From the NCBI GenBank assembly GCA_963719225.1, contig CAVRAY010000001.1, positions 1,984,001 through 2,048,000 of the forward strand: DNA of 64,000 nt. The letters are read 5' to 3'. Each line of letters opens with the position of its first letter. The stretch's first letter is position 1. Under the pieces are notes generated by a model. The model searched no databases. It was given only the letters and a program-made list of their open reading frames with translations, and was not told the DNA's origin. Below, in pieces: positions 3,054-56,306 of the stretch. Position numbers and translations under genes: made by a program. The stretch is from Thermoanaerobaculia bacterium. Lineage in GTDB: Bacteria; Acidobacteriota; Thermoanaerobaculia; UBA5066.

Positions 3054-4607
3054 ATGTTGCCTCTCTTACCTTCTAAGAAAATCTCCCGTCTTTTCTTCTC
3101 TCTCGCTTCCGGCGTCCTTCTGGCCCTCTGTTTCCCGAATTTCTCGATTCTTCCTCTTCTCCCCGTCGCGCTGATTCCGCTGCTCGCCGCGCTCGATGGC
3201 GCGCGGCCTCGAAACGCCGCGGTCCTCGGCTACGCCTTCGGGCTCGCCTTCTGGATCGTCACGATTCCCTGGATCGCGTACACGGTGCACCGATTCGGAG
3301 GCGTGCCGTGGGTCGTGGCGGGACTCGCGCTCGTGCTCGCCGCGGCCATCTGCGCGGTCCCGATGGCCGTCCTGGGGCTTCTGTACGCGTGGGCGGCGCC
3401 CCGCACCGCCGCCGGCGTCGTGGCGACGTTCGCCGCGGCGTGGGTCGTCCAGGAGTTCTTTCGCACGACCGTCTGGATCTTCGGCGGTTTTCCGTGGGCT
3501 CTCCTCGCGAACCCGCTCGCCGACGTCCCGCAGCTCCTCGGCACGGCCGCTCTCGGCGGCGTTCTCCTGTCGTCGTTTCTCGTGGCCTCCTTGAACGCCG
3601 CGCTGTACGTCGCGCTCACGAGACCCGCCCGGAATCTGCGGCTGGCGTGGCTCGCCGGCGCGGCGCTCGCCGCCGTGATCGCGGGGGCGGCCAGGCCCGG
3701 CCGCCCGGCGGCTCCAGTCGAGTTCCTGAGGGTGGGCGTCGTTCAGCCGAACGTCCCGCAGGACCTCCGCTGGGAGGCCGGCACCGCGGAACGGCTGCTC
3801 GCCGATCTGGAGGACCAGACGCGCGGCCTCTGTCACCACGGGCGGCCGGCCCTCGTGCTGTGGCCCGAGAGCGCCGCTCCCTATTCGTGGTCTTTCACAC
3901 CGGCTTTCCGCGAGCGGGTCGTCGCGCTTTGTCGAGAGCTCGACATCGCGATCCTCTTGAGCACCGTGTGGTCGGACGCGCCGGACGACCCGGGCGCCCC
4001 GTTCTACAACGCCGCTCTCCTCGTGACGAAGGACGGACCCGTGACGCCGCCCTATTTCAAGCAGCGGCTCGTGCCCTTCGGCGAGTACGTCCCGATGGCC
4101 GGCCTCCTCCGGAGGATCAGGCCCATCAGCCGCGCGGTGCCTTCGGCGTTCACACCCGGCGCCGGACCGGCTCTCCTGAGGCTCGGCACCTGGAGGCTCG
4201 GCGGCGCCGTGTGCTACGAGGTCGTCTACCCGTGGATCGCGCGGGAAGAGACGCGGGCGGGGGCCGACGTCCTCTTCACGCTCACGAACGATGCGTGGTA
4301 CGGCCGGGCCGGCGCTCAGCGGCAGCACTGGCAGTCGGCCGTCGTGCGCGCGATCGAGACGGGGCGCCCCCTCGTGCGCGCCGCGATCACGGGAATCAGC
4401 GGAGCCGTGGACGGAAGCGGGCGCGTTCTCGTCACCCTCGGCCCCGACACGAAAGGCGCTTTCGCGGTGCCGCTCGAGCGGCGCGCCGCGCCTGCGCCCG
4501 CGGCCGCCGCAGGCGACGCGGCGGCCTGGGTTTGCACGGCGGGGCTGGTGGCCGGTATTCTCCGTGCGCGGCTTCTCAAGCCCCGAGAGCCCGCGGCGGC
4601 CGGCTGA
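3054..4607 (+). CDS. lnt: Apolipoprotein N-acyltransferase
   Basis: GGFPW, VQPNV, WPESA, KQRLVPFGEYVP, VCYE, TNDAWYG motifs; start codon uncertain. Confidence 0.95.
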   Translation: MLPLLPSKKISRLFFSLASGVLLALCFPNFSILPLLPVALIPLLAALDGARPRNAAVLGYAFGLAFWIVTIPWIAYTVHRFGGVPWVVAGLALVLAAAICAVPMAVLGLLYAWAAPRTAAGVVATFAAAWVVQEFFRTTVWIFGGFPWALLANPLADVPQLLGTAALGGVLLSSFLVASLNAALYVALTRPARNLRLAWLAGAALAAVIAGAARPGRPAAPVEFLRVGVVQPNVPQDLRWEAGTAERLLADLEDQTRGLCHHGRPALVLWPESAAPYSWSFTPAFRERVVALCRELDIAILLSTVWSDAPDDPGAPFYNAALLVTKDGPVTPPYFKQRLVPFGEYVPMAGLLRRIRPISRAVPSAFTPGAGPALLRLGTWRLGGAVCYEVVYPWIAREETRAGADVLFTLTNDAWYGRAGAQRQHWQSAVVRAIETGRPLVRAAITGISGAVDGSGRVLVTLGPDTKGAFAVPLERRAAPAPAAAAGDAAAWVCTAGLVAGILRARLLKPREPAAAG

Positions 4608-4652
4608 CCGATCCTCCAACTCGAACCGTGCGCCGCCGAGAGGAAGTTCCAC

Positions 4653-5802
4653 GTGAACGAAGAACGCATTGAGCGCCTGCTCGAACTCGCGTCGTCCGTG
4701 AGCGCCCTCCGGGGCTATCTTTGACGTCCGCAAGGCGGCGAAAGAGAAGGAAGAGCTCGAGCGGAAGACCGGCGAGCCCGGCTTCTGGACGAACGCTCTC
4801 GAGGCGCAGGAGACGCTGCGCAAGCTGAAGCGCGCCGAGCGCGTCCTGGACGACGACAAGGACCTCAAGGAACGACAGGACGAGCTCGAGATCCTCGCGG
4901 AGTTCCTGCGCTCGGGCGAAAAGGTGGAGTCGGACGCCGACCAGGCGCTCGCCACGATCGGCCCCTGGGCGCGCCACAAGGAGCTCACCTTCAAGCTCAC
5001 GCACGACGAGGATCCGCTGCCGGCGATCGTCGAGATCCACGCGGGCGCGGGCGGGACGGAGGCGCAGGACTGGGCGGAGATGCTCATGCGCATGTATCTC
5101 CGGTACGGGGAGCGGCGGGGATGGAAGACGGACGTCCTCGAGGCGACGTACGCCGAGGACGCGGGCATCAAGACCGCGACGCTGCGCTTCGAGGGGGAGT
5201 ACGCGTACGGACACATGAAGGCCGAGCGCGGCGTGCACCGGCTCGTGCGCATCTCGCCGTTCGACGCCGCGGCACGGCGCCACACGTCTTTCGCCGCGGT
5301 CTACGTCTCGCCGGAGATCGACGACACGATCCAGGTCGAGATCGGCGACAAGGACCTGAGGATCGACACCTTCCGGGCCGGCGGCAAGGGCGGACAGCAC
5401 GTCAACAAGACGGAGTCGGCGATCCGCATCACGCACCTGCCGTCGGGGCTCGTCGTGCAATGCCAGAACGAGCGTTCCCAGCACAAGAACAAGGACGCGG
5501 CGATGAAGGTCCTGAGGTCGCGTCTCTACCAGCGCGCCCTCGAAGAGCGCCAGGCGAAGGACGCCGAGCGCGCCGGCACGAAGATGGAGATCGGGTTCGG
5601 ATCGCAGATCCGTTCGTACGTTCTCGCGCCCTACAGGCTCATCAAGGACCACCGCACGAACTTCGAGGTCGGAGACGTGGACCGGGTGCTCGACGGGGAC
5701 CTCGACGGCTTCATCGAGGCGTATCTCCAGACTTTCGTGAAGAGAGGCGAGAAGGCCGCCACCGAGCGGCAGGGGTTCGGCGCGCCCGACGCGGCTCCAT
5801 GA
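4653..5802 (+). CDS. prfB: Peptide chain release factor 2, programmed +1 frameshift: join(4653..4721,4723..5802)
   Basis: GTG 4653 opens a 23-codon frame ending GGGGC-TAT-CTT-TGA-C; the +1 frame continues into RF2 with SPF and GGQ motifs. Confidence 0.97.
4711..4725 (+). promoter_or_regulatory. prfB +1 frameshift site (SD-like GGGG plus CTT TGA C)
   Basis: Sequence ggggctatctttgac matches the conserved RF2 autoregulatory shift site. Confidence 0.95.
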
Positions 5803-6428
5803 CGGATACGGACGGCGCGTACAGCCCCTGGATGGAAGAGCTGAGGACGCGTCTCGGCCGGGGCTTTGCTCCGCGGGCCCGCACTTCCGAGAGGGAAGAC
5901 GAATCCCGTCCGCTTCGTCAGGCGGCGGTGCTGATTCCGCTCTACGTGCGGGGGAAGGGCCTGTGGACGCTCTTCACGAAGCGGACGGACATGGTCGAGC
6001 ACCACAAGGGCCAGATCTCGTTCCCGGGGGGCGGGAAATCCGACCGGGACGCGAATCTCTGGGAGACGGCGACCCGCGAGACGGAGGAGGAGATCGGCGT
6101 CCCGCGCGCGAGCGTCCGCATCCTCGGCGTCCTGCCGAAGCTCGAGACCGTCACCGACTTCGAGGTCTCGCCGTTCGTCGGCGCGATTCCCTATCCGATC
6201 GACTTCGCGCCGCGCGCGGGCGAGGTGGAATCCATCATCGAGGTTCCCATGTCGTACCTCCTCGATCCGATGGTCGTCGAAGAGCGTGCCGTGAAGTGGA
6301 AGGGCCGGGACGTCAAGACGCTCGTCTACCACTACCGCGGCCATGCGATCTGGGGCGCGACCGCCCGCATCCTCGCGGACCTGCTGGCCGCGATGCGGGA
6401 CGAAGGCGGCCTCGTTTCACCGGGGTGA
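5799..6428 (+). CDS. CoA pyrophosphatase, Nudix (NudL-like)
   Basis: AAVLIPL, HKGQISFPGG, RETEEEIG Nudix box, IWGATA. Confidence 0.92.
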   Translation: MTDTDGAYSPWMEELRTRLGRGFAPRARTSEREDESRPLRQAAVLIPLYVRGKGLWTLFTKRTDMVEHHKGQISFPGGGKSDRDANLWETATRETEEEIGVPRASVRILGVLPKLETVTDFEVSPFVGAIPYPIDFAPRAGEVESIIEVPMSYLLDPMVVEERAVKWKGRDVKTLVYHYRGHAIWGATARILADLLAAMRDEGGLVSPG

Positions 6429-6446
6429 CGTCCGGCAGGCCGGCGC

Positions 6447-8093: not shown

Positions 8094-8106
8094 GCGCGGA
8101 TTGTAG

Positions 8107-9807: not shown

Positions 9808-9845
9808 GGAGTCAAAAAATCGTACCACGCGGCTATCATCCGGGC

Positions 9846-10496
9846 GTGCGGCGTCGCGTCCGGGAGCTCCTGACCGTTCTCGCGGCTGCGGGCGTCGGCT
9901 GCGGCTCACCCGACGCGAATCCGGCGGCGCCCTCGAGCGCGCCTGTCGCGCGCGCGGCCGAGGCGCGCGACGTCTATCGTCCTCCGGCCGACGGGCGCGT
10001 CACGACAGTCCAGGTGGAGATATTCCTGTCCGTTCTCGACCGCGTCCGCCTCGACCGGAGAGGGGAGAAACCCACCCCCGCCGGCGATCCTCTGTCGAGC
10101 GTTCCCGCCGACGTCGCCGCGGCCCGTGCTCGAGGCGTGAACGTCGAGGAGTTCCTCTGGGTCAAGGAGAGGGTGCTCGAAGCCGAGGCGGCGACCATGA
10201 CCGCCCGGCTCAACGCATCGGCTCTCGCGATGCTAGACAAGACGCTGGCCGACCTGAAGGCCCGGAGGTCGGACGCGGCGGACGAGGGGTCGCGAAAGCT
10301 CCTCGCAGAGCAGACGGCGCAGTTCGAGGCTGAAGCCGAACGGGTGCGCCGGGAGTCGAAGGTGCGCGAGAACGATGCCGTGCGCGCGAACATGAAGACT
10401 CTCGAGCCGTACCGCATGCGCCTCGCGGCGGCGCAGGACGCGCTCGAAAAGCCGCTTCTCAAGGAAGCGGAGAAGAAGAGCACCAAAGATTCTTAG
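9846..10496 (+). CDS. Hypothetical lipoprotein, helical
   Basis: Lipobox-like 'AAAGVGC'; GC3-rich codon usage; tight junction with the next gene. Confidence 0.7.
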   Translation: MRRRVRELLTVLAAAGVGCGSPDANPAAPSSAPVARAAEARDVYRPPADGRVTTVQVEIFLSVLDRVRLDRRGEKPTPAGDPLSSVPADVAAARARGVNVEEFLWVKERVLEAEAATMTARLNASALAMLDKTLADLKARRSDAADEGSRKLLAEQTAQFEAEAERVRRESKVRENDAVRANMKTLEPYRMRLAAAQDALEKPLLKEAEKKSTKDS

Positions 10497-10497
10497 A

Positions 10498-11367
10498 ATG
10501 GAGATACGGAGAGTCGGAATCCTGGGCGCGGGGCTGATGGGGTCGGGCATCGCGGAGGTGTGCGCGAAGGCGGGCTACGAAGTCGTCGTCCGTGAACCCA
10601 CGGACGAGCTGCTCGCGAAAGGGCGCAACCGCGTCACGCAATCCCTTTCTAAGGCAAGGCAGCGAGGCAAGCTGCGAGAAGAAGATGAATCCGCGATCCT
10701 CTCGCGGCTGCTCTTCTCCTCTTCACTCGAAGAAATCTCTTCTTCGGATCTCATCCTCGAGGCGATCGTCGAGAGCCTCCAGGCCAAGAAAGAGGCCTTC
10801 GAAGCACTCGACAAGTCGTGCGCGCCGCACGCGATCTTCTGCTCGAACACGTCGTCGCTGACGATCGCCGAGATTGCGGCGGCGACCGCGCGGCCGGATC
10901 GCTTCGCCGGATTGCACTTCTTCAACCCCGTCCCCGTGATGAAGCTCGTGGAGGTCGTGCGGGCGATCGGGACTTCCGACGAGACTCTCGCGCGCGTGAC
11001 GGCGTTCGCTCGAACCCTCGGCAAGGAGCCCATCGCGGCGCGCGACAACTCGGGATTCGTCGTCAACCGGCTGCTCGTGCCCTACCTTCTCGACGCGATC
11101 CGCGCGCACGAGCAGGGCGTGGGCACGCTCGAGGACGTCGATACCGGCATGAAGCTGGGCTGCGCGCAGCCCATGGGACCGTTCGAGCTTCTCGATTACG
11201 TCGGGCTCGACACCGTGTATGCGATCGCGGAGATCATGTTCACCGAGTATCGCGAGGCTCGCTTCGCGCCGCCGCCGCTGCTCAAGAGGATGGTGATGGC
11301 CGGGCGTTTTGGCAGGAAGTCGGGAAGGGGATTCTATGAATACGACGAGAAGGGGAACCGAAGATGA
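10498..11367 (+). CDS. hbd: 3-hydroxybutyryl-CoA (3-hydroxyacyl-CoA) dehydrogenase
   Basis: GAGLMGSGIA, SNTSSL, GLHFFNPVPVMKLVE, PMGPFEL. Confidence 0.93.
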   Translation: MEIRRVGILGAGLMGSGIAEVCAKAGYEVVVREPTDELLAKGRNRVTQSLSKARQRGKLREEDESAILSRLLFSSSLEEISSSDLILEAIVESLQAKKEAFEALDKSCAPHAIFCSNTSSLTIAEIAAATARPDRFAGLHFFNPVPVMKLVEVVRAIGTSDETLARVTAFARTLGKEPIAARDNSGFVVNRLLVPYLLDAIRAHEQGVGTLEDVDTGMKLGCAQPMGPFELLDYVGLDTVYAIAEIMFTEYREARFAPPPLLKRMVMAGRFGRKSGRGFYEYDEKGNRR

Positions 11368-11867
11368 GGCTGATTGACCCCTCCATCATGGAGCTCGACC
11401 GGGAGGCGTCCTCGACTCGCAAGATGCTCGAGCGCGTGCCCGAGGGGAAGAACGAGTGGGCGCCGCATGCGAAATCGATGACCCTCGGAAGGCTGGCCAC
11501 GCACGTCGCGACGCTCCCGCGCTGGGCGGGCTTCCTGGTGGAGGACGCCTTCGATCTGGTCCTGAATTCGGTCGCCACTCCGACCCCGCCTCCCACGACG
11601 GCAGGCCTCGTGGCGCTCTTCGACAAGACGATCGCGGACGCCAAGAGCGTCCTCGCCGGATTCGACGACGGGCGCGCCATGGGAATGTGGACGCTCTCGA
11701 TGAAGGGAAAGACGATTTTCTCGATGCCGCGCCTTGCGGTCGTGCGGATGATGATCCTCAACCACTCCGTGCATCACCGCGGGCAGCTCTCCGTCTATCT
11801 CCGCCTCCTCGACGTCCCCGTGCCCGGCATGTACGGCCCGAGCGCGGACGAGAATCCGTTCGTCTGA
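11364..11867 (+). CDS. DinB family protein
   Basis: NHSVHHRGQLSVYLR..VPGMYGPSADE motif. Confidence 0.9.
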   Translation: MRLIDPSIMELDREASSTRKMLERVPEGKNEWAPHAKSMTLGRLATHVATLPRWAGFLVEDAFDLVLNSVATPTPPPTTAGLVALFDKTIADAKSVLAGFDDGRAMGMWTLSMKGKTIFSMPRLAVVRMMILNHSVHHRGQLSVYLRLLDVPVPGMYGPSADENPFV

Positions 11868-11881
11868 AAAGAGGTACCGAC

Positions 11882-12655: not shown

Positions 12656-12670
12656 AGAGCTCCGGCGCTT

Positions 12671-14074: not shown

Positions 14075-14085
14075 GTCATCCTTCC

Positions 14086-15483: not shown

Positions 15484-15536
15484 CGTTCCTCCGATCAAGG
15501 TCATTGGGGAAGATACGCAGTCCCGGGCAGGAGGTT

Positions 15537-16728: not shown

Positions 16729-16803
16729 GGCCCTCCACCTCCTGTTCTTTCGTACCCCTCTCGCGCGGTTTCCTTCACCGCCAGCGAGGAAAATGACCTG
16801 GAA

Positions 16804-17487: not shown

Positions 17488-17497
17488 CGCAAGAAGC

Positions 17498-18649
17498 TCA
17501 GCCAGGGATCCAGCTGTCGTGGTAGCCGGGGTGCTCGAGTGCGAGGGCCTGCTCCGTGAGGTGGAGCGGGACGAACGTGTCCATCATGACCGCGAGCTCG
17601 TCGGTCGACCGCGAGCCGATCGATCCCTCGTAGGCGCCGGGGTGCGGGCCGTGGGGAACCCCCGAGGGATGCAGGGAGACGGCCTTCGGCCCCACGCCCT
17701 TGCGGCTCGTGAACGTGCCGTCCACGTAATAGATGACCTCGTCGCAGTCGACCGAGGCGTGCGGGTACGGACACGGGATCGCGTCGGGATGCGTGTCCGT
17801 GACGCGCGGAACGAACGAGCAGATGAGCGCGTTGCGCGCGCCGAAAGTGGAGTGGATGGTAGGCGGAAGGTGGATGAGGCCGGTCTTCGGCTGGTACTTC
17901 CGGATGTCGAACGCGAAGGGCCAGACCGTGCCGTCCCACCCGACGACGTCGAACGGCGAGACGAGGGGAGCGCGTTCGACGAACGCGTCGTCCTTCTTGA
18001 CGAGGATGCGCTTCGGCCCGGAGCGCGGACCCTTGAAAACGGGCCGGACGAAGTCGCGGTGCGTGTAGGGGGCATCCATGCGCAGCTGGCCGACGGGATT
18101 TCTGAACTCGCGGGGCAGGTGTAGTCCGGCGCGCAGTTCAAAGAGAACTCCTTCGAAAGGCGAAGAGATCCGGAAACGCGCGACGACCCCGCGGGGCACG
18201 AGCACGTAGTCGTTCTTCCGGACCGGAAGATCTCCGAAGGGCGACTCCAGCGTTCCCTCACCTTCGTAGAAAAAATACAGGTCGTCCCCGTCGCCGTTGC
18301 TGAACCCGTCGGGGCTCTCCGCCTCCCGGGGCACCTTGAACAGCGAGACCGTCACGTCGGAGTTGAAGAGGATCGGCGTGAATCCCTCGGGGGCCTTTTC
18401 CCCGAGGACGAGGCGGCGGCGCAGCGGTTGATGCCCCGCGGGCCGGGGAACCTGCCGGTCGAACCGGCCGGGCTTCGCCGGGCCGATGAGGGTGTCCGTC
18501 ATCGGCGGCCCCTCGTGGTAGAGGATCGAGAACTCCCCGTCGAAGCCGCGGCGTGTCAGGCACTCCTCGTAGCGCAGCGCCCCGGACGAGGAGCGAAACG
18601 CGGTGTGCGGCTTCGGAGGCACCTCCCCGAGCTGCATCCGATCGATCAT
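17498..18649 (-). CDS. hmgA: Homogentisate 1,2-dioxygenase
   Basis: NGDGD, PFDVVGWDG, HLPP, PYPH, HPSGVPHGPHPG, ELAVMMDTF; downstream of hppD. Confidence 0.92.
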   Translation of the reverse strand: MIDRMQLGEVPPKPHTAFRSSSGALRYEECLTRRGFDGEFSILYHEGPPMTDTLIGPAKPGRFDRQVPRPAGHQPLRRRLVLGEKAPEGFTPILFNSDVTVSLFKVPREAESPDGFSNGDGDDLYFFYEGEGTLESPFGDLPVRKNDYVLVPRGVVARFRISSPFEGVLFELRAGLHLPREFRNPVGQLRMDAPYTHRDFVRPVFKGPRSGPKRILVKKDDAFVERAPLVSPFDVVGWDGTVWPFAFDIRKYQPKTGLIHLPPTIHSTFGARNALICSFVPRVTDTHPDAIPCPYPHASVDCDEVIYYVDGTFTSRKGVGPKAVSLHPSGVPHGPHPGAYEGSIGSRSTDELAVMMDTFVPLHLTEQALALEHPGYHDSWIPG

Positions 18650-21165: not shown

Positions 21166-21166
21166 A

Positions 21167-22123: not shown

Positions 22124-22939
22124 TTGCTCAAGAGGGGAACCGAAGAAGAAGATTTCCTTAGAAGGGTTGCGAGAGCTGCCGGCGTTTGGGGCGGGCTCTT
22201 GCTCTTCATGTTTTCGGCACCCTCCGCGGCCGCGTCCCTCGTCGTCTTCGAGGACGGGCGGCACATTCGGGTCGCGAGCTACGAGGTCGTCGAGGAGGAC
22301 CGCCTGGCCGTGAACCTCGTCGGAGGGGGGTCGATCACGATTCCCCTCGACGTCGTGGAGCGCATCGTCGACGAGGAATACGAGCGGCCGGCACCGGTTC
22401 CCGAGAGCGTTGCCGCGGGCCTCGCGAGCGAGCCGCCGGCGCCGGAGAGACGTTCCGTCCGCGCCTTCTCGGAAAATGTCTCTTCTCCTTCGGCTCTCTC
22501 TTCCTCCTCAGCAGCCGCTTTCTCTTCCTCGACGCCTTCCCCCTTCTCCTCCCAGATCCTGGAGGCCGCGAAACAGCACCACATCGACCCGGCCCTCATC
22601 GCTGCGGTCATTCGCGCGGAGTCGAACGGCTATCCGCGCGCCGTTTCCCGAAAAGGAGCGCGCGGGCTGATGCAGCTCATGCCGGCGACGGCGCGGCGGC
22701 TCGGGGTGAAGAGCGCCTTCGACCCGCGGGAGAACATCCGGGCGGGCACGGCGTACCTCGCCGAGCTCGCCAAGCGATTCGGCGAGACGAACGCGGACCT
22801 CATCCTCGCGGCGTACAACGCCGGGGAGCACGCCGTCGAGGAGCACGGCGGCGTTCCGCCATATCGCGAGACGCGCGATTACGTCAGGCGCGTCCTCGCG
22901 TTCTGGGCCTTGCTCGCGGCGTCCCGATCGGCTCTCTGA
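22124..22939 (+). CDS. Lytic transglycosylase (SLT domain)
   Basis: AVIRAES, SRKGARGLMQLMP, AAYNAG, PPYRETRDYV; start uncertain. Confidence 0.92.
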   Translation: MLKRGTEEEDFLRRVARAAGVWGGLLLFMFSAPSAAASLVVFEDGRHIRVASYEVVEEDRLAVNLVGGGSITIPLDVVERIVDEEYERPAPVPESVAAGLASEPPAPERRSVRAFSENVSSPSALSSSSAAAFSSSTPSPFSSQILEAAKQHHIDPALIAAVIRAESNGYPRAVSRKGARGLMQLMPATARRLGVKSAFDPRENIRAGTAYLAELAKRFGETNADLILAAYNAGEHAVEEHGGVPPYRETRDYVRRVLAFWALLAASRSAL

Positions 22940-43882: not shown

Positions 43883-44850
43883 CCGAAGAGGCGGCCATTG
43901 CCCCTGCGTTCGCCGCCGAGGAGGTCACCGCCCAGCTCGCCCGCGCAGGTGAGGTCGCCGACCGGCGGGAAGTGGGGCTGTGGTTCGTCGGGGGGGCGCT
44001 GCGCGACCTGCTCCTCGGGCGCCCTCTTCACGACGTCGATCTCGCCGTGGAGGCGGGCGCCGCGAACGCGCTCGAGCTCGCGACGCGGCTCGGAGCGCTG
44101 TCGGGCTGGACGCTGGAGAAATCCCACGCGCGGTTCGGAACGGCCCAGCTCAGGGCGCCCGGCGGCCTCCGTGTGGACATTGCCGCCACTCGCCGCGAGG
44201 AGTATCCGGCGCCGGCGAGCCTGCCGGTCGTCACCGGCACGACCACGATCGAGGAAGACCTCGGTCGCCGGGACTTCACGATCAACTCGATGGCCCGGCG
44301 GGTCGGCAAGCGCGGCCTGACGGGAATCATCCTCGACCCCTTCGGCGGCAGAAAGCACCTCGTCTCGAAGACGCTTCGCCTCCTGCACCCGAAGTCCCTC
44401 GTCGACGACCCGACGCGCGCCTACCGGGCGGTAAAATACGCGCTCAGGCTCGGATTCGAATGGGACGGGGATTTCGAAAAAGCAATCAAGAAGGCCCGTA
44501 CCGCGGGCGCCTTCGGAGCTCTTTCCGGCGACCGGATGAGGAGAGGAATAGAAGAGATTTTCTTGGAAGGGGCATGGGACCGCGCGGCGCGGCTCGTCGA
44601 GGAGCTCGAACTCCTGGGCGACGTCCTTCCCGGCTGGAGAATTCCCCATTCACCTTCTAAGAAGAAAACGTCCTCTCGCTCTGCACCGGCATTCCTCGAC
44701 GCATCCCGCCCGGAGGCCGAGCGTCCGAAAGCAGAAATCTCCTGGAAGCGCCTCCTCGCGCCGCTGACGCCGGTCGAGCGCGCCGCCGTCGCCTCTCGCC
44801 TGAACTTCCCGAAAGTCCTGCGGCGCGCCGCGGACGCGGAAGTGCGATGA
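43879..44850 (+). CDS. CCA/poly(A) polymerase-family tRNA nucleotidyltransferase
   Basis: VGGALRDLLLG..DVDL, DLGRRDFTINSMA, DDPTR. Confidence 0.88.
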   Translation: MTEEAAIAPAFAAEEVTAQLARAGEVADRREVGLWFVGGALRDLLLGRPLHDVDLAVEAGAANALELATRLGALSGWTLEKSHARFGTAQLRAPGGLRVDIAATRREEYPAPASLPVVTGTTTIEEDLGRRDFTINSMARRVGKRGLTGIILDPFGGRKHLVSKTLRLLHPKSLVDDPTRAYRAVKYALRLGFEWDGDFEKAIKKARTAGAFGALSGDRMRRGIEEIFLEGAWDRAARLVEELELLGDVLPGWRIPHSPSKKKTSSRSAPAFLDASRPEAERPKAEISWKRLLAPLTPVERAAVASRLNFPKVLRRAADAEVR

Positions 44851-45590: not shown

Positions 45591-45592
45591 GC

Positions 45593-46153
45593 GTGGTGCG
45601 CCTGACCGCCGGTACCTGGCGCGGGCGGAAGCTCGCGGTTCCGCAAGGCATCCGGCCGACGACCGAGCTCGCGCGCAAGGCGGCGTTCGACATCCTGGGC
45701 GACGCCGTCGTCGGCGCGAGGGTGCTGGACGCGTGCGCGGGCTCGGGAGCGTACGGCCTCGAGGCGCTCTCTCGCGGCGCGGCGCACGCGACGTTCGTCG
45801 AGGCGGATCGGGAGGTCGCGAGAGTCTTGAGGGGGAATGTGGAGAGGCTGCTCGCGGGGGAGCGGGCAACCATCGAAGAGACGTCCGTGGCCCGTTTTTC
45901 TTCGAAGGTGAAAGAGAGGAAGGCGCCGGATGCGCTGGAGCGTCCGTCGTTCGATGTGGTCTTTCACGATCCCCCTTTCAAAGAAATCTCCGAATCGTCC
46001 GAATCTGACCTTCGGCTCCTGCTTTCTCTCGTGGGGGCGGGAGGCTGGTTGTTTCACGAGCGCGGCGACGACGAGGTCCTTCGTCCTTCGGGCCTCGAAC
46101 CGGCCGACCGCCGGCGCTACGGCACGACGCGCTACCTGGTTTTTCGTCCTTGA
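45593..46153 (+). CDS. rsmD: RsmD family rRNA methyltransferase
   Basis: [40 protein letters not shown]. Confidence 0.88.
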
Positions 46154-46214
46154 GCGATTTGCCGGCCTGCTAAACTTCGCGCTTCGCCGCAACGCGGCTT
46201 TGGAGCACAGAAAC

Positions 46215-47381: not shown

Positions 47382-47446
47382 GAAAGAGAAAGAGATTGAC
47401 GCCCAGCCCTCCCTGACCCCCTGTGAGAAGATTTCGCCTTCCTTCT

Positions 47447-47466
47447 ATATCACGCCAGCATGATCA
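47447..47466. promoter_or_regulatory. Putative SahR operator
   Basis: ATATCA-N8-TGATCA, 14 bp before the regulator's start; resembles the ATCA-N8-TGAT palindromes I recall for SahR. Confidence 0.55.
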
Positions 47467-47480
47467 TATGATATGATTTC

Positions 47481-49789
<2,309 letters not shown>

Positions 49790-51118
49790 CAGGCTGCTGA
49801 AAAAGGGCTCCTGAAAATCGCGGCGAGGCATTGACTGCTGCGCGATGCGGCTGCACCTTGATGTGCATGCGTGGAGACAACGAAAAGCAGGTCGATCTTG
49901 TCGTGACGATGACGCCCGAGGAGCTCGTGCCGCGGGACCACCCGATCCGCAAGGTGAAGGCGCTTGCAGACGAAGCGCTCAGGCGTCTCGAGCCCAAGCT
50001 CGCCAGGCTGTACTCGGAGCGAGGGCGTCCATCGATTCCGCCCGAGATGCTTCTCAAGGCGCAGATCCTCATCGCGCTGTACAGCGTGAGAAGCGAGCGG
50101 CTCTTCTGCGAGCGGCTCGGGTACGACTTTCTCTTCCGCTGGTTCCTGGACATGCCGGGGCTTGCACCGGCCTTCGATCCGACGACCTTCTCGAAGAACC
50201 GCCAGAGACTGTTGGAGGCCGAGGTCTTCGAGGAGTTCTTCTCGGAAGTCGTCGCACAGGCCCGCAAGAAGTTTCTTCTCTCGGACGAGCACTTCACCGT
50301 GGACGGCACGCTGATCGAAGCGAACGCCTCCTTGAAGAGCTTCCAGCCCCGGAAGGACAAGGACGGTAAGGGCGGCGATGAGCCGCCAGCTCCTGGCGGC
50401 CGCAACGCCGATGTCGACTTTCGCGGCCAGAAGAGGCGCAACGACACGCACGCCTCGACGACCGATCCCGACGCCAAGCTCTACAAGAAGGGAGACGGCC
50501 AGCCTTCGCAGCTGTGCTACCTCGGCCACGTCTTGATGGAGAACAGAAACGGACTGTGCGTGAAGGCGCGCGTAACGACGGCCGACGGCTACGGGGAGAG
50601 GTCGGCCGCACTGGGCATGGTCGACGAGCTGGGCTCGGACAAGCGCATCACGCTGGCCGGCGACAAGGGCTACGACACGAGGGATTTCATCGAAAGGCTC
50701 CGAGAGAGAGGCGTCACGCCCCACGTGGCCCAGAACACCACCAACAGGCGCAGCGCCATCGACCGAAGGACGACGAGACACGCGGGCTACGCCGTGAGCC
50801 AGCGAATCAGGAAGCGCGTCGAAGAAATCTTCGGCTGGAGTAAGACCATCGGAGGCCTGGCCAAGACGCGCTTCCGAGGACTCGCCCGCGTGGCGGCTCA
50901 CGTCCTCAGCGTGATGACGGCCTACAACCTCGTCCGAATGGCGCGAATGGAGTCCTCGACCGCCTGATTCCCCCTGAAGCGCCCCTCGGTGCGACCGAAG
51001 CGGGCCGAAAAAGGCGAGCAGCACGGACTCACTCTCTCGAAGCAATCCCCTCTTTCAGCTTGACGTGTCTTCTCCCGCTCAAGCTCCTTTGAAAAAGAGC
51101 CCTTTCTTCAGCAGCCTG
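49790..51118 (+). mobile_element. IS5-family insertion sequence, 1329 bp, CTAG target duplication
   Basis: IRL caggctgctgaaaaagggctc (49790-49810); IRR gagccctttcttcagcagcctg (51097-51118); CTAG at 49786-49789 and 51119-51122. Confidence 0.95.
49867..50967 (+). CDS. IS5 family DDE transposase
   Basis: GRPSIPPEMLL, FTVDGTLIEA, AGDKGYD, RKRVEEIFGW. Confidence 0.95.
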   Translation: MRGDNEKQVDLVVTMTPEELVPRDHPIRKVKALADEALRRLEPKLARLYSERGRPSIPPEMLLKAQILIALYSVRSERLFCERLGYDFLFRWFLDMPGLAPAFDPTTFSKNRQRLLEAEVFEEFFSEVVAQARKKFLLSDEHFTVDGTLIEANASLKSFQPRKDKDGKGGDEPPAPGGRNADVDFRGQKRRNDTHASTTDPDAKLYKKGDGQPSQLCYLGHVLMENRNGLCVKARVTTADGYGERSAALGMVDELGSDKRITLAGDKGYDTRDFIERLRERGVTPHVAQNTTNRRSAIDRRTTRHAGYAVSQRIRKRVEEIFGWSKTIGGLAKTRFRGLARVAAHVLSVMTAYNLVRMARMESSTA

Positions 51119-53416
51119 CTAGGTCCTCACTCCGAGCAGGCCCCACGCCGCACCGAGGCCGAAGAAAACGTTCGGAGCCCAGGCCGCGAGGAACGGCGGG
51201 ATCGCCCCCTGCTGCCCGAAGGAGACGAGGAGCGCGGACAGGAAGAGGTACGTGAGGCCGAGGAAGAGCGCGACGCCGACTCCGGCCACGGCGCCGCGCT
51301 TGCCGTACGTGAACGCGAAGGGGAGTCCGATGAGTGTCAGGAGAAGGGCGGACGCGGCCGCCGCGGTCTTCTGGTGGAGACCCGTCGCGAGCGCGGCCGT
51401 GTCGGCGCCGACCTTGCGACGCACGTCGATGAACCGGGACAGTTCGCGAAACGTCATCTGACGCGGGTCCGCACGCCCCGCTGCGAAGCCCGCCGCGGCC
51501 TCTGGAGCTTCGATGAAGAAGGGACCGTCGCGCCGGATGGCCAGCGAGTTGTCCGGCGAGAACGTCCGGATCCAGCCGCGTTCCGCGAGAAGGCCTCTCC
51601 CGGGCGCGAGGCGCGCGAGGGCTGCGTCCTGGCGCGAGACGAGCTTCCAGGTCGCCGGGTCGATTTGAAGCACGGTGACGCCGCTCGCGACGAGCGACAC
51701 GGGGTCGTACGCATCCGCCGCGAGAAAGCGGCCGCCGTCGCCTCGGAACCAGGACCCGCTTGCGCCGCTGACCGGCGGCTTCTGGCCTTTGAGCAGGAAG
51801 CGAATCCGGTCGGACTCGGACGCGGCCGCCGGAACGACACGCTCGGCGAACACGAAAAGCCCTGCTCCCGCGGCGACGGCGAGGACGAGGAGGGGGGCCG
51901 TGATCCGATGAAGGGAAACGCCGTGCGCCAGGAGCGCGGTCGTCTCGGAGGAGCGCACGAGGCTCGCGACCGTCACGAGCGCCGCCACGAGAAACGCGAA
52001 CGGCACGATGTCCAGAATGATCGGCGGGAGAAATGCCTGGTAGTAACGGAGGATGAGCGCGGTCGGAGACCGGTGCCGCGCGATGTCGTCGGAGATCTCG
52101 AGGTAATCGATCAGGACGTAAAGCGTTGCGATCGATACGACGACGAGAGCGAAGATTCCGAGAAACCGCCGGGCGACGTACCGGTCGATGAGGAGAATTC
52201 CCCTGAGGGAAGCGCGCCGCCCTTGGACGCTCGGGACGTCGAGAGAGGGCTGACCCGGGGCGGCGGCGATGGCCGAAACGGCGGGAGCGACCACCGTCGT
52301 GGGAAGCGAGAACACGGCCTTGTCCCGCCGCACGCGTGAGAGCGCGAAAACGCCGAACGCCAGGAGGAGGAGGTTCGGCAGCCACATGGCGAGAGCCGGG
52401 GAGGTGCTTCCCTCGATCGCGCGGGCCTCGCCCGTGGCGAGAAGAGAGTAGTAGAGCAGCACGATCGCGACCGAGACCGCGAACCCTGCAGCCCGCCCGC
52501 CTCGCCGGTTGACGATTCCGAGAGGGAGCCCGATGAGGCCGAAGACGAGGCAGGCCGCGGGCAACGCGAACTTCTTGTGGACCTCGGTGAGCGCGAGCCT
52601 GCGGTCCTCGGGCCGCCGGGTGCTCGCCGCGGCTCGCTCCAGGAGCTCGCGGAGCGTCTGCTCGCGAATCTGTTTCTCCGTCACGCCGCGCGACGGCCCG
52701 TTGTCCTGCAGCACCATGCGGTGACGCGAGAAGGACGTCACGTCGTATCGGCCGCCGGCGTCCTGCACGTGGTGGGTTTCGGCGTCCTCGACGCTCAGCC
52801 AGAGACGACCCTGGTCCTCCTCCAGCTCGAGCCAGCCTCGCTTCGCGAGCGTCAGCCTTTCACCTTCCGGGCTGGAGCGGTCTGAAATGATGAGGCCCGT
52901 GAGCTCCCGGCGATCGGGCGAAGCCCCCTCGGCGTAGACGCGGAGACCGGCGATTTCCGGGCTGAAGACACCTGGTTGGATCCGCTGGGCGAAGGCGAAG
53001 CTCGAGAGGCGGAGCTTCATCCCGTAGAGCAGGTGGTTTGTCCGCGGGACGACACCGAGCATCAGCGCCAGGGTGGCCGCGCCGATGCCCACGGCCAGGA
53101 AGCCGATCGGCCGGTAGAGGGACAGGAGATCGACGCCCGAAGCGCGGAGCGCCGTCAGCTCGAGGTCCGCCGATAGGCGGCCGATCCCGATCAGGAGGCC
53201 GAGGAGGAAGGCGATGGGCAGCGTGAGGACGATGATGTGAGGGAGCGAGAGGGCGACAACCAGCCCGGCCTCGACGAAAGGTTGCTCGCTCTGTACGAGG
53301 AGCTCCGAGAACTGCACGAGCCCCCGGACGGCCATAAACCCCGTGTAGGCGAGGAAGCCCACGATCGTGGGCGCGAGAACCTCCCGGAAGACATAACGGT
53401 CCAGCAGCCGCCGCAC
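51119..53416 (-). CDS. lptFG: Fused LptF/LptG LPS export permease
   Basis: Two tandem YjgP/YjgQ halves (LLDRYVFRE...WLPN; LIDRYVARR...WAPN). Confidence 0.92.
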   Translation of the reverse strand: MRRLLDRYVFREVLAPTIVGFLAYTGFMAVRGLVQFSELLVQSEQPFVEAGLVVALSLPHIIVLTLPIAFLLGLLIGIGRLSADLELTALRASGVDLLSLYRPIGFLAVGIGAATLALMLGVVPRTNHLLYGMKLRLSSFAFAQRIQPGVFSPEIAGLRVYAEGASPDRRELTGLIISDRSSPEGERLTLAKRGWLELEEDQGRLWLSVEDAETHHVQDAGGRYDVTSFSRHRMVLQDNGPSRGVTEKQIREQTLRELLERAAASTRRPEDRRLALTEVHKKFALPAACLVFGLIGLPLGIVNRRGGRAAGFAVSVAIVLLYYSLLATGEARAIEGSTSPALAMWLPNLLLLAFGVFALSRVRRDKAVFSLPTTVVAPAVSAIAAAPGQPSLDVPSVQGRRASLRGILLIDRYVARRFLGIFALVVVSIATLYVLIDYLEISDDIARHRSPTALILRYYQAFLPPIILDIVPFAFLVAALVTVASLVRSSETTALLAHGVSLHRITAPLLVLAVAAGAGLFVFAERVVPAAASESDRIRFLLKGQKPPVSGASGSWFRGDGGRFLAADAYDPVSLVASGVTVLQIDPATWKLVSRQDAALARLAPGRGLLAERGWIRTFSPDNSLAIRRDGPFFIEAPEAAAGFAAGRADPRQMTFRELSRFIDVRRKVGADTAALATGLHQKTAAAASALLLTLIGLPFAFTYGKRGAVAGVGVALFLGLTYLFLSALLVSFGQQGAIPPFLAAWAPNVFFGLGAAWGLLGVRT

Positions 53417-53440
53417 GGAAGAGATGGTAAGGCGAAGGAG

Positions 53441-53458
53441 AAGATTCTCTTAGAAGGG
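53441..53458 (-). repeat. TTCTAAG-core motif, dif-left pair, copy A
   Basis: Reverse complement CCCTTCTAAGAGAATCTT. Confidence 0.85.
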
Positions 53459-53511
53459 AATATGGCGGGCGAGCGCAGTCCGGATGGCGAGCCTGGTGCG
53501 GGCGGCCCAGG

Positions 53512-53527
53512 CACCTTCTAAGGAATC
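53512..53527 (+). repeat. TTCTAAG-core motif, dif-left pair, copy B
   Basis: CACCTTCTAAGGAATC. Confidence 0.85.
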
Positions 53528-53567
53528 CCCGGTGCTCGTTTCGGTCGGATTCCCACGCCAATGTACA

Positions 53568-53595
53568 ACGTCCGATAATATTTATTATGTTAAAT
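53568..53595 (+). other. dif: dif site (XerC/XerD chromosome dimer resolution)
   Basis: ACGTCCGATAA-TATTTA-TTATGTTAAAT: 11-6-11 layout, XerD arm identical to E. coli dif; intergenic AT-rich island at the gene-orientation convergence. Confidence 0.93.
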
Positions 53596-53690
53596 ATTAG
53601 ATGACCCTTGCCTAATGAAATAAGGCGACCCTCGCGGGCCCGCACTTCCCTGCGCACGCCGACAAAAATCGATGCGCAAGACGTGAGGGA

Positions 53691-53707
53691 GTATTTCTTA
53701 GAAGGTG
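53691..53707 (-). repeat. TTCTAAG-core motif, dif-right pair, copy A
   Basis: Reverse complement CACCTTCTAAGAAATAC. Confidence 0.85.
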
Positions 53708-53766
53708 AATGAGTAGGAAGGCTCTGGGGATCTCGCAGAGCGCTTCGGTGTGCGGGGGCTCCACGT

Positions 53767-53784
53767 ACCCTTCTAAGAGATCTT
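53767..53784 (+). repeat. TTCTAAG-core motif, dif-right pair, copy B
   Basis: ACCCTTCTAAGAGATCTT. Confidence 0.85.
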
Positions 53785-53864
53785 TTGCGGCGGTTCAGGA
53801 CGCTCCGGCCGAGCAGCTGGAGTCCAGCCTCGAAGCTGGGAGGGTGTTACTCCGAGAGCAAGAA

Positions 53865-54770
53865 CTATTTCTTCGCCTTGACCGCTTTCGCCTTCACAAA
53901 GCGACCCTGCGTCTCGAGGTCGATATCTCCCGCTTCGATCCGCCGTGCGAGATCGCGGATCGCCTCGAGGATTTCATCCTTCTTGTGGAGGCGGCCCTTG
54001 AGGACGAGGCTCACCTTGTAGCGCTTGTCCTCCGGAGCAAAGTCGAGCGTGTACGCTCTCTTCAGTCCGCCCAGCTTCGAGCTGGTGCCGCGTCGCGCGT
54101 CCTTCTTCACTTCGCGCAGGACGTCGCGGCTCAGCGTGTCGCCGTTCGCCAGCGCCATGACGGCGGCGAGCATGAGGTCTTCGTCCTTCAGTCTTCCAAG
54201 CTCGAGCAGGAACGATCTTGACCCGATGTCGGCACGCCGACATTCGGCCTGAACGCGCTCGGGAAGCCTCGCAATCGACAAGGCTTCCGTGATCGTCACG
54301 CGCGACTTCCCCACGGCATCCGCGATCTGCTCGTGCGTGTAACCGTGGCGCTCCTGTAGAGCCTTGTAGCCGTCCGCTTCCTCGAACGGGCTCAGGTCCT
54401 TGCGCTGGAGATTCTCGACGAGCGCGATCTCGAGCAGCTCGTTGTCGGCAACGTCCATCTCGATGCAGGGAATCTCCGAGAGACCCGCTTCGAGGGACGC
54501 GCGAAAGCGCCTCTCTCCCGAGATGATCGTGAAGCGCCCGTCTCCCCGTGGACGCACGAGAATCGGCTCGAGGACGCCCTTGTCCAGGATGGATTTCGTT
54601 AGGTCGGCGAGGTCGCCCATAGCGCTTCGAGGCTGATCGGGATTTGCCTCGATGAGATGGATCGGGATACGACGACCGACCGGCAGTTCGTCGGCGCGGA
54701 CGAGCTGCTCGACGAAATGCGAGTCGTGGCGCATGCGCGAAGTCTCGGGAAGGCCGCGGCGTTTAGACAC
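53865..54770 (-). CDS. parB: ParB/Spo0J-family CTPase with atypical DNA-binding region
   Basis: NPDQPR, GVLEPILVR, ISGERRFRA, ALVENLQRKDL; HTH 'THEQIADAVGKSRVTITEAL'. Confidence 0.92.
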   Translation of the reverse strand: MSKRRGLPETSRMRHDSHFVEQLVRADELPVGRRIPIHLIEANPDQPRSAMGDLADLTKSILDKGVLEPILVRPRGDGRFTIISGERRFRASLEAGLSEIPCIEMDVADNELLEIALVENLQRKDLSPFEEADGYKALQERHGYTHEQIADAVGKSRVTITEALSIARLPERVQAECRRADIGSRSFLLELGRLKDEDLMLAAVMALANGDTLSRDVLREVKKDARRGTSSKLGGLKRAYTLDFAPEDKRYKVSLVLKGRLHKKDEILEAIRDLARRIEAGDIDLETQGRFVKAKAVKAKK

Positions 54771-55524
54771 GAGAGAGGATCTCCTCCGTCAGGCTGTAGT
54801 ACTCGAGCGCGCCTGACGAGCGCGGAGCGAATGTGAAGATGGATTCCCGATACGCCGGCGATTCCTCCAGCCGGATGGACTTCGAGATCGTCGTCTTGAA
54901 GAGCTTTCCCTTGAAGACCTCGTTGATCTGGCTCTGAATGTCCTTGCCGAGCGTCGTCCGCTTGTCGTGAAGCGTGATCACGACACCCAGGATCTGGAGA
55001 TTCGGATTCGGCCGGCTCTTGATCTTCTCGATCGTCTCGAGGAGATCATCGGTCCCTTCGAGCGCGAAGTACGAAGACTGAATCGGAATCAGGATGTGCG
55101 TCGAGGCGACGAGGGCGTTCACCGTGATCATGCCGAGCGTGGGCGGCGTGTCGATGAGGATCGCGTCGTATTCGCCCGACTCGCGCACGACCTGGAGCTT
55201 GTCCTTCAGCCGGAAGTGCCCGTCGAGTTCGCCGAGGAGCTTCGACTCCACCTTCGCGAGCGAGATGCGCGCAGGCGCGACCGTCAGCTTCGGGAGGCTC
55301 GTCTGCTTGACGATGTCGAAGAACGATACGCTCGGGTCGGTGAGCACGTCGTACATCGACTTTTCCACGTCCTTGCGATCCACGAAAGACATCGTGGAGT
55401 TGCCCTGGGGATCCAGGTCGATGAGCAGCGTCCGGAGACCTTTTTGCGCAAGAGCCGCTGCGAGATTGATCGCGGTGGTGGTCTTCCCCACTCCGCCCTT
55501 CTGATTTGCAACGGTGATGATCAT
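54763..55524 (-). CDS. parA: ParA/Soj-family ATPase
   Basis: NQKGGVGKTTT deviant Walker A, IDLDPQGN, IDTPPTLG. Confidence 0.95.
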   Translation of the reverse strand: MIITVANQKGGVGKTTTAINLAAALAQKGLRTLLIDLDPQGNSTMSFVDRKDVEKSMYDVLTDPSVSFFDIVKQTSLPKLTVAPARISLAKVESKLLGELDGHFRLKDKLQVVRESGEYDAILIDTPPTLGMITVNALVASTHILIPIQSSYFALEGTDDLLETIEKIKSRPNPNLQILGVVITLHDKRTTLGKDIQSQINEVFKGKLFKTTISKSIRLEESPAYRESIFTFAPRSSGALEYYSLTEEILSRV

Positions 55525-55596
55525 GCGCTGGCGACGCGGATGATACGGAGGGGGCGAGGAGGCATCAAGGACGAAAGGTACGTCCCGCCCGGAAAA

Positions 55597-56082
55597 TCAC
55601 ATCCGGTACTTGCCGAGGGTGTCGGGATCGGCTTCCTCGAGCCACTTCTTGAGACGTTCCGCGTTCTGCGCTTCGGCGGTGTCCTCGCCGCTCCGGCTCA
55701 TCTCGAGAACCGACTCCTCCACGAAGACCGGCGCCTGGAGCCGGAGCGCGAGCGCGATCGCATCCGACGGGCGGCTGTCGACGAGGACGTCCTTGTTCGC
55801 GACGCGGAGGTGAATCTGGGCGTAGAACGTGTTTTCCTTGAGGCTGTTGATCACGACGCGCAACACGTTGCCCTCGATCTGGGTGATGAGGTTCTTCAGG
55901 AGGTCGTGCGTCATCGGCCTCGGCGTCGTCACGCCTTCCATTTGAAGAGCGATGGCATTCGCCTCGAAGACCCCGACCCAGATCGGCAGAAAGTTCTTCT
56001 CCTCGGCGTCCCGCAGGATCACGACCGGCATGTTTGCGATCGGATCGACGATGAGCGCTTTCACATCCATTTTGACGCTCAA
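55597..56082 (-). CDS. Bifunctional nuclease family protein (DUF151)
   Basis: LPIWVGVFEANAI, PRPMTHDL, DSRPSDAIALA; RBS AGGAG 8 nt before TTG. Confidence 0.92.
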   Translation of the reverse strand: MSVKMDVKALIVDPIANMPVVILRDAEEKNFLPIWVGVFEANAIALQMEGVTTPRPMTHDLLKNLITQIEGNVLRVVINSLKENTFYAQIHLRVANKDVLVDSRPSDAIALALRLQAPVFVEESVLEMSRSGEDTAEAQNAERLKKWLEEADPDTLGKYRM

Positions 56083-56117
56083 GGTAGTTTCTCCTGGGAC
56101 TCAATCTAGGGAGGAAT

Positions 56118-56126
56118 TGTGGATAA
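56118..56126 (-). promoter_or_regulatory. Perfect DnaA box
   Basis: TGTGGATAA = reverse complement of TTATCCACA; a second variant box TCATTCACA lies at 56143-56151. Confidence 0.6.
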
Positions 56127-56220
56127 AGCAAGGAAGAGCCCTTCATTCACAGGGCATGATTTGCTATTAAGTGCTTTTAATAGAATGAATTAAAAGAGAT
56201 TTTCAGAAGACGGGAAACCG

Positions 56221-56306
56221 AAGACTTCTTAGAAAGTGCCCGTGCCGGAGTCAGCGCCGGTGGCGAGCGTGCTACGGCCGCGCTCGTAGACCCTTCTAAG
56301 AGGATT
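56221..56306. repeat. TTCTAAG-core motif inverted pair upstream of the DUF151-parAB operon
   Basis: CTTAGAA 56228-56234 (contains the miaB stop) and TTCTAAG 56294-56300. Confidence 0.8.

Follow-up and report, generated by a model that had tools for sequence, protein, structure and literature searches.

A genus-restricted polypurine signal in inward-facing pairs across the genome of a Thermoanaerobaculia bacterium

Introduction

Preferential uptake is the defining property of the DNA uptake sequences (DUS) of Neisseriaceae and the uptake signal sequences (USS) of Pasteurellaceae; matS, KOPS (FtsK orienting polar sequences) and Chi are chromosomal words read by DNA-handling machines and are marked by a terminus domain or by strand skew; Rickettsia palindromic elements (RPEs) lie in frame and are translated inside housekeeping genes; and repetitive extragenic palindromes (REPs) are extragenic. 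Here we compare with these systems a motif found in a 64-kb stretch of the chromosome of a Thermoanaerobaculia bacterium (Acidobacteriota). This stretch, C1:1984001-2048000, is called the window below, and positions in it are counted from its first letter; the genome to which it belongs, G000, consists of two replicons (3.88 Mb, C1, and 0.87 Mb) with 67.7% G+C. The element in question is an asymmetric polypurine signal of about 40 bp with the core CTTAGAA, which we write as '>', its reverse complement TTCTAAG being '<'. We found no published description of it in the open-access literature, where a paper under the genus name could be missed.

In the excerpts of two studies that deal with them, DUS and USS are present in hundreds of copies on both strands within one lineage, lie in genes in several frames, are commoner between genes and enrich the peptides that they encode (PMC2817400, PMC2397512). 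The same excerpts describe frequent dyad pairs, new copies that are thought to be partly recombinational in origin, and a preference for permissive parts of the core genome (PMC2817400, PMC2397512); the dyad pairs are close-set terminator hairpins, with at most 21 nt between the copies (PMC2397512). HIP1 of cyanobacteria is presented, in excerpts of two further papers, as a hyper-abundant, lineage-wide word of genes and spacers that is kept by selection (PMC5861425, PMC4390886).

The motif studied here resembles DUS and USS, as these excerpts describe them, in its hundreds of copies, its near-equal use of the two strands, its lineage specificity and its genic copies in several frames. It differs from them in length (about 40 bp of polypurine signal against 9-12 bp), in density (about one per 5 kb against about one per kb), in its rise towards the terminus and in that the pair is its normal state, with cores 60-160 nt apart and 159 of 284 pairs wholly within genes. 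HIP1 is an 8-bp perfect palindrome tied to orphan methyltransferases, whereas the motif here is long, asymmetric and paired. RPEs and MITEs (miniature inverted-repeat transposable elements) share with it an inverted-repeat architecture, a total length of 100-200 bp and in-frame copies in housekeeping genes; unlike them, it has only its arms in common from copy to copy, it overlies native sequence and no cognate transposase was found. With REPs and their paired form, REPINs, it has in common short conserved arms, inverted pairs and vertical maintenance at orthologous places, but its arms are not palindromic, its spacers are long and unique, G000 has no Y1_Tnp gene and more than half of the units lie in genes. 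Like matS, KOPS and Chi it is an over-represented chromosomal word, here with a broad gradient towards the terminus; unlike them it has no strand skew, is not limited to the terminus, is present on the second replicon and is paired. The closest known behaviour is that of DNA uptake sequences and HIP1, and the inward pairing at 60-160 nt belongs to neither.

Results

A sequence-only reading of the window had listed eleven TTCTAAG cores, and all were recovered at the positions and on the strands that it gave: 3071, 10647, 44655, 53516, 53771 and 56294 on the plus strand, and 10492, 22157, 53449, 53697 and 56228 on the minus strand. Its rough mononucleotide expectation of one or two copies is in line with dinucleotide shuffles of the window, which predict 1.04 cores (standard deviation 0.97) and of which none in 100 reached 11. 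The parent words CTTAG and CTAAG are fewer in the window than expected (15 against 23.8), and most of them (11/15) extend to the core, as had been remarked; a twelfth, at 2915 (CTTAGGA), belongs to a degenerate partner arm. The flanks are conserved as well, the 17-mer CATTCACCTTCTAAGAA at 44647-44663 recurring without change as its reverse complement at 53695-53711.

The whole genome holds 384 exact cores, 199 and 185 on the two strands, against 46-85 expected under Markov models of orders 1 to 4, so that the word occurs far above background frequency. The maximal-order estimate is high (300) because the 6-mers within the core themselves belong to the motif. Alignment of the 384 exact sites gave the central consensus W-TTTCTT-A-GAA-R-G between two purine tracts; the complete signal, which spans -22 to +17 around the core, is made up of about 18 purines, WTTTCTTAGAARG and about 10 further purines. 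The profile does not differ between 260 intergenic and 567 genic arms. The shorter consensus proposed earlier, CCTTCTAAGRRWATC, matches the middle of this longer motif when reverse-complemented. A search with nhmmer and a 67-column profile recovered only 206 copies and was replaced by a position matrix, which finds 873 units at a score of at least 18 and 616 at a score of at least 25; an order-3 Markov genome of the same size yields 10 and 0. The reversed matrix, with 305 sites at a score of at least 18, mostly in '><' arrangement, is unsuitable as a control because the motif is nearly mirror-symmetric and the same sites are found again; the order-3 Markov genome took its place. CTTAGAA (333), CTTCGAA (210), CTTTGAA (69), CTTCGAG (54) and CTTGGAA (54) are the most frequent cores. 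Shuffles and genome-wide consensus together thus bear out the earlier description of an over-represented, dispersed and unrecognised motif with a quasi-palindromic core.

Neighbouring units no more than 400 nt apart face each other in 284 cases ('><') and face away from each other in 17 ('<>'), with 58 and 45 in the two tandem arrangements; the exact cores by themselves are inward-facing in 65 of 84 cases. In all, 544 of 872 units belong to '><' pairs within 300 nt (60-300 nt apart). The core-to-core spacing starts abruptly near 60 nt, with very few pairs below, and is broad beyond that. The 81 intergenic pairs have a median spacing of 82 nt, 20 of them falling at 70-79 nt, and the 159 pairs that lie wholly within genes have a median of 118 nt; a further 44 of the 284 pairs are mixed. 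No helical phasing at 10-11 bp was seen among 228 distances, and spacing modulo 3 shows no clear preference once a set of paralogous kinase genes is put aside. Partner arms do not covary: in 249 pairs they are identical at 21.14 positions, compared with 20.96 +/- 0.19 for arms of other pairs, and in 59 intergenic pairs at 15.10 compared with 15.33 +/- 0.28. The interiors, with a mean G+C content of 71%, have no other match in the genome in 232 of 263 cases, the remaining 31 being mainly kinase paralogues; beyond these paralogues, none of the 263 interiors appeared to be captured or repeated DNA.

The kinase genes account for most of a spike at a spacing of 91 nt. Among these Ser/Thr kinase genes, at least 14 paralogues have a pair within the kinase domain, nine of them in one array; they lie at G000:C1:2295900-2319800 and at six other loci. 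Its identical place in the domain and its exact 91-nt spacing across the paralogues imply that the pair is older than the expansion of this family.

On C1, 494 units lie in genes and 299 between genes, according to a home-made gene caller of which 33 open reading frames (ORFs) were checked with Pfam; the distribution is therefore not confined to promoters, more than half of the units being inside genes, although the density per base is 2 to 10 times higher between genes. Genes that bear units include those for aconitase, alanyl-tRNA synthetase (AlaRS), a class I tRNA synthetase, Lhr, RecG, an AddA/UvrD-type helicase-nuclease and an AcrB-type pump. In translation the units appear as Glu/Lys/Arg-rich or Ser-rich stretches, such as KEEKKEDLLRRRES, EEFLEGEEG and GHSPSKKSSSSSSS. 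They are found in both orientations and in all three frames, and the canonical core is never placed in the frame that would read TAG or TAA. That frame is taken by variants in which the A is replaced: CTTCGAA fills it in 36 of 57 sense-'>' and 55 of 70 sense-'<' cases, and CTTTGAA and CTTCGAG do so likewise. TTA makes up 0.2% of Leu codons, and 28% of all TTA codons lie in units, which comprise 0.32% of codons. A unit core also supplies the end of 17 of the 3271 called genes.

At three loci (aconitase, AlaRS and an RsmD-like methyltransferase) arms are superimposed on native coding sequence and add no length. In an alignment of aconitase from 14 genus genomes and 11 outgroups, the '>' arm, read as FLEKE or FLEGE in 13 of the 14 genus genomes, overlies a native segment that is LLEKS or ILEKS in all six sister-family genomes. 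The distance between anchors is 225 nt both in the genus member G008 and in the outgroup G024, the change to the '>' arm uses rare codons and the interior of the pair encodes conserved aconitase residues. Both AlaRS arms are present in 11/11 genus genomes and in 0/9 outgroups; the '>' arm overlies a native coiled coil, and the '<' arm comes with a poly-Ser tract in sequence that the outgroups lack. In the RsmD-like protein, positions 1-181 of the 182 of Pfam Cons_hypoth95 match residues 2-184 of 186, leaving no added residues.

One aconitase of the genus stands apart. That of G004 (L049, among loci L047-L075) is without both arms and has outgroup-like residues, the rest of the protein grouping with that of G000; either the arms have spread between species or G004 received a motif-free segment. 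A locus search in assembled contigs returned only distant aconitases (at most 67% identity) and no near relative.

The motif is a property of the genus. Allowing one mismatch, the 15-mer GATTTTCTTAGAAGG has 124 matches in G000 and between 41 and 200 in every one of the 18 other genus genomes searched, with 0-2 matches for 15-mers read backwards as controls, and it has no match in any of 12 genomes from two sister families. A class-wide draw of 151 genomes found it dense in all ten further genus genomes and absent from the six that represent four other genera of the family; the remaining 134 have two matches at most in any one genome. The zero counts given in this study for the 15-mer and for the Y1_Tnp and DUF559 domains take in one unpublished genome, G019, which enters none of the alignments.

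Among relatives, arms are kept at orthologous places and interiors are not. In the spacer between the bifunctional-nuclease and MiaB-like genes, compared in 22 genus genomes, an exact '>' core is present in 14 and an exact '<' core (TTCTAAG or TTCGAAG) in 13; the arms stand at corresponding places around interiors that can barely be aligned, and one genome, whose spacer measures 113 nt, has neither arm. An alignment of 20 kb was made from five genomes (G000, G003, G007, G009 and G017), and it shows that arms are kept somewhat better than neutral sites and that turnover is real.

Cumulative GC skew and gene-strand bias place the origin of C1 near 0 and the terminus near 2.05 Mb. At the GC-skew maximum lies a 23-mer (C1:2037573; window positions 53573-53595), unique in the genome and identical in five genus genomes, which we take to resemble the dif consensus. 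Six of the eleven cores do lie within 3 kb of it, as the sequence-only reading had pointed out, but the local tie to dif that this suggested did not survive, the motif being genome-wide, with its 384 exact cores and 873 matrix units spread over both replicons. Windows of 64 kb with at least 11 exact cores number 59 of 477 along the chromosome and 44 of 213 between 1.2 and 2.9 Mb. There is a broad rise in density towards the terminus and no effect local to dif, the count in the window being ordinary. In genes the density grows about fourfold, between genes (the first bin excepted) less than twofold; a rise that is mainly genic agrees better with tolerance on the part of less constrained genes than with a function of the terminus. 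No skew by strand or replication direction is seen, '>' arms making up about half of the units in every 200-kb bin. The second replicon carries 9.1 units per 100 kb compared with 20.4 for the chromosome.

About 300 bp separate a parB-parA pair (53865-55524) from the dif-like site, which places this pair at the predicted terminus. Such pairs are usually near the origin.

Two intergenic pairs flank the dif-like site. The one on its left (53427..53544; exact cores 53449 and 53516, spacing 67), upstream of a fused lptF/lptG gene, is common to G000 and G003, with an interior that cannot be aligned, and is absent or a remnant in G007, G017 and G009. Within it, a 19-codon ORF (53462-53521) starts 6 nt past the left arm and ends with the TAA of the right arm; it is probably incidental, since the interior is not conserved in G003. 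The pair on the right (53675..53799; exact cores 53697 and 53771, spacing 74), downstream of parB, is found in G000 only among the five aligned genomes. A third pair of exact cores, 56228 and 56294, 66 nt apart (56206..56322), has a further degenerate '>' arm at about 56179 and encodes the last ~30 codons (56229-56320) and the TAA stop of the minus-strand MiaB-like gene.

Three more pairs in the window are wholly genic. That in the PolyA_pol/CCA-adding enzyme gene (44540..44683) joins CTTGGAA at 44562 (score 35.5) to the exact core at 44655 (27.1) with a spacing of 93, is translated as ...IPHSPSKKKTSSRS... and has both arms kept in all three relatives that cover the site. The pair in the RsmD-like methyltransferase gene (45878..46005; CTTCGAA 45900, TTCAAAG 45977, spacing 77) is present as variants in three relatives. 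A weak pair (18129..18291; CTTCGAA 18151, score 19.1, and TTCGTAG 18263, score 22.0, spacing 112) lies in a minus-strand gene with a Pfam HgmA_N match.

Four more exact cores lie elsewhere in the window. The '<' arm at 3060..3099 on the minus strand (exact core 3071, score 44.4) lies in codons 6-10 of the Lnt gene (MLPLLPSKKISRLFF...), whose Pfam LNT_N match starts at residue 19 if the ATG at 3054 is taken as the start; its probable partner, 156 nt away, is a degenerate plus-strand '>' arm (2893..2932, core CTTAGGA at 2915) directly after the lipoyl synthase stop, which is below the matrix threshold and was assigned by eye. The plus-strand '>' arm at 10470..10509 (exact core 10492, score 32.9) ends the upstream ORF with its TAG, and its final core base is shared with the ATG of a 3-hydroxyacyl-CoA dehydrogenase gene; inside that gene lies its probable partner at a spacing of 234, a minus-strand '<' arm (10715..10754, score 31.9) with a variant core (CTCGAAG on the plus strand). 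The TTCTAAG at 10647..10653 on the plus strand, in the same gene, has no conserved flanks and is not in the matrix list; it is probably a chance or decayed copy and not a unit, about one copy being expected by chance. The plus-strand '>' arm at 22135..22174 (exact core 22157, score 27.8), between the genes for an XerC/D-type recombinase and an SLT transglycosylase, has only weak candidate partners, at 22466 and 22505.

Several other genes of the window deserve mention. A 1242-residue protein (25369-29097) fuses CheB methylesterase, CheR methyltransferase, PAS, histidine kinase and receiver domains, and LptF and LptG are fused in a single ORF of 765 residues (51119-53416) with two Pfam LptF_LptG stretches. 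An IS5-type transposase gene (49867-50967; DUF772 and DDE_Tnp_1) lies in a stretch that is absent from the four aligned relatives and is therefore a recent insertion in G000.

Discussion

Our analysis suggests that the cores in the window belong to a genus-restricted polypurine signal of about 40 bp that is likely to be read as duplex DNA by a putative genus-specific protein and likely to be kept up by drive or selection, rather than by transposition or by a link to dif, a reading to which we give about half of our confidence. It starts from what the genomes display directly, namely a motif with a measured copy number and a pairing rule, confined to one genus, present in every reading frame with variants that avoid stops, and superimposed on native sequence. 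The same profile inside and outside genes, the stop-avoiding variants, the native overlays and the unique interiors argue that transposition is not the main source of copies and that a force acts at the DNA level on each arm separately. The lack of covariation and of helical phasing leads us to infer that each arm would be read singly, as duplex DNA. New arms would arise mainly through substitution or short-patch replacement, motif-bearing alleles may pass between species by recombination, and the genic copies would be tolerated by-products and not locus-specific regulators; a genome-wide drive or selection, as for DNA uptake sequences, would keep the signal up. That the consensus is identical across the species of the genus and missing from neighbouring genera speaks for a conserved reader specific to the genus.

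The most serious competitor, although an improbable one, is a non-autonomous transposon family of MITE or RPE type with 40-bp terminal inverted repeats, inserted in the ancestor of the genus and still moving occasionally. In their geometry the arms are like terminal inverted repeats, and at 110-200 bp a complete unit has the usual size of a MITE; presence and absence go with indels between close species, including an insertion of about 230 nt in G017 only; and the family is confined to one genus and is denser near the terminus and between genes. The in-frame genic copies are also reminiscent of RPEs. Set against this, the interiors are not shared (232/263 are unique), so that among independent copies none derives as an entire element from another, and native coding sequence is overlaid without added length at three loci. 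Variants occupy exactly the frames in which an inserted canonical copy would kill the gene, and the consensus is the same across the species sampled, unlike that of an old, dead family. Nor was an autonomous parent seen: no repeated '><' pair flanks a transposase-sized interior in G000, a survey in which the ends of the IS5-type element of the window were not compared. The Y1 transposase domain of REP-associated tyrosine transposases (RAYT; Y1_Tnp, PF01797) has no match in G000 and is matched in 2 of 18 genus genomes compared with 6/6 in the sister family f2. DUF559 (PF04480), which accompanies the BoxC and PIT triplex repeats, is matched in none of 19 genus genomes, G000 included.

There is a smaller chance that the arms act as RNA or single-stranded DNA, pairing into a stem that ends or stabilises transcripts in both directions, either as a REP-like stabiliser or as a bidirectional terminator with a U/C-rich tract. 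The '><' order does put a pyrimidine-rich tract behind the stem whichever way transcription runs, the intergenic spacings peak at 70-79 nt (20/81), and uptake sequences can serve as dyad-pair terminators according to the excerpts cited above (PMC2817400, PMC2397512). In predicted folds of four pairs of the window the arms do pair, with z-scores of -0.9 to -2.3. They would do so because they are inverted copies of one consensus, and the absence of covariation, partner arms being no more complementary than arms of other pairs, speaks against selection for a stem. Moreover, 159 pairs lie wholly in genes, those for aconitase and AlaRS among them, in which termination would do damage; spacings below 60 nt are very few, despite the better hairpins that short loops form; and spacers of all three kinds, convergent, divergent and tandem, contain units. 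Rfam covariance models gave no match at gathering score in the 64-kb window.

It is very unlikely that the units are terminus-oriented sites for chromosome organisation or segregation, either similar to the matS sites of MatP or linked to Xer and FtsK. Such a role would agree with the climb in density from 6-22 to 55-71 units per 200 kb between origin and terminus, with the position of dif at the GC-skew maximum and with the two pairs that flank it in G000. However, units occur all over the chromosome and on the second replicon, they lack the strand skew of KOPS or Chi, and the gradient, about fourfold in genes, does not reach twofold in the greater part of the intergenic DNA. Of the four relatives, three or four lack the pairs that flank dif, whereas dif is identical in all five genomes, and the count in the window is ordinary for the chromosome.

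Still less probable are paired recombinase sites that invert the DNA between them (invertons, including intragenic ones). The inverted orientation rule (284 against 17), the flexible spacing with its lower limit near 60 bp and arms that are held to the consensus rather than to their partner, as sites for a protein would be, are what such sites would show, but the genic interiors encode conserved native protein segments that inversion would destroy, and their spacing has no clear preference modulo 3 with the kinase paralogues set aside. Finally, the copies just upstream of start codons at 10492, 22157 and 53449 might suggest an operator for some global transcription factor, or a promoter element that an alternative sigma factor reads. 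This is already close to refuted by a distribution in which more than half of the units lie in genes in both orientations and convergent spacers carry units too. Facing promoters 60-160 bp apart would also be senseless, and the bifunctional-nuclease gene downstream of one pair has, by eye, its own conserved sigma-70-type -35/-10 between pair and start.

A triplex-forming arm of the PIT type was also considered; it is limited by a pyrimidine block of only 7 nt, which would give at most a few triplets. Viral contigs show no enrichment: they gave 84 single matches, and the 80 loci examined have a median GC content of 38% and no second core, as expected of background.

Several observations weigh against the proposal of a duplex signal that is kept up arm by arm. 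In the 20-kb alignment, the identity of 12 units with G007, G017 and G003 (0.84, 0.76 and 0.74) is not far above that of third codon positions (0.77, 0.70 and 0.71), and each of the three relatives has gaps in 110-149 of 300 arm columns, so that turnover by indels is common. The intergenic insertion of about 230 nt in G017 brings three arms, is absent from the four other genomes and looks like an insertion rather than a point mutation; no target-site duplication was seen at this one clean insertion. Density is uneven along the chromosome: bins of 200 kb hold 6-22 units around the origin and 55-71 around the terminus. Gene positions rest on the home-made caller, with a Pfam check for 33 ORFs only. 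The uptake-sequence model gives no reason to expect pairs that face inward, and all that we say about function is inferred. G000 encodes ComEC, DprA and two secretins, but these say little, since the same families are encoded in 6-11 of 14 control genomes.

If the signal is nevertheless read as proposed, it may serve to bias DNA uptake or transfer, to mark self DNA for a recombination or defence machine, or to shape nucleoid architecture. By analogy with uptake sequences, a drive of the uptake or transfer type would rank first among these, while being unlikely in its own right. The facing arrangement at 60-160 bp is accounted for by none of them. On its sequence features, the motif can provisionally be placed as a paired variant of the class of genome-wide recognition words.

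Words that are written into genes against codon preference, such as uptake sequences, HIP1 and Chi, have each pointed to a dedicated DNA-handling machine, and the role of HIP1 was open for decades. The word described here is long and asymmetric, and its strict pairing is seen in none of the known classes. The motif defines oligonucleotides for pull-down, and, being fixed in the genus and missing from sister genera, it offers a clean comparative handle on its putative reader by phylogenetic profiling. For annotation, it means that some stop codons and C-terminal tails, as well as poly-Ser and Glu/Lys-rich loops in housekeeping proteins, come from the motif. A bolder and more tentative possibility, which we hold to be somewhat less probable than the duplex signal itself, is that the genus possesses a DNA-reading system without known counterpart, a machine for transfer, self-recognition or chromosome folding, in which the inward-facing pair of 40-bp arms would be the functional unit and the arm sequence would have been forced by drive or selection into some 300 places per genome, essential enzymes included, against codon usage.

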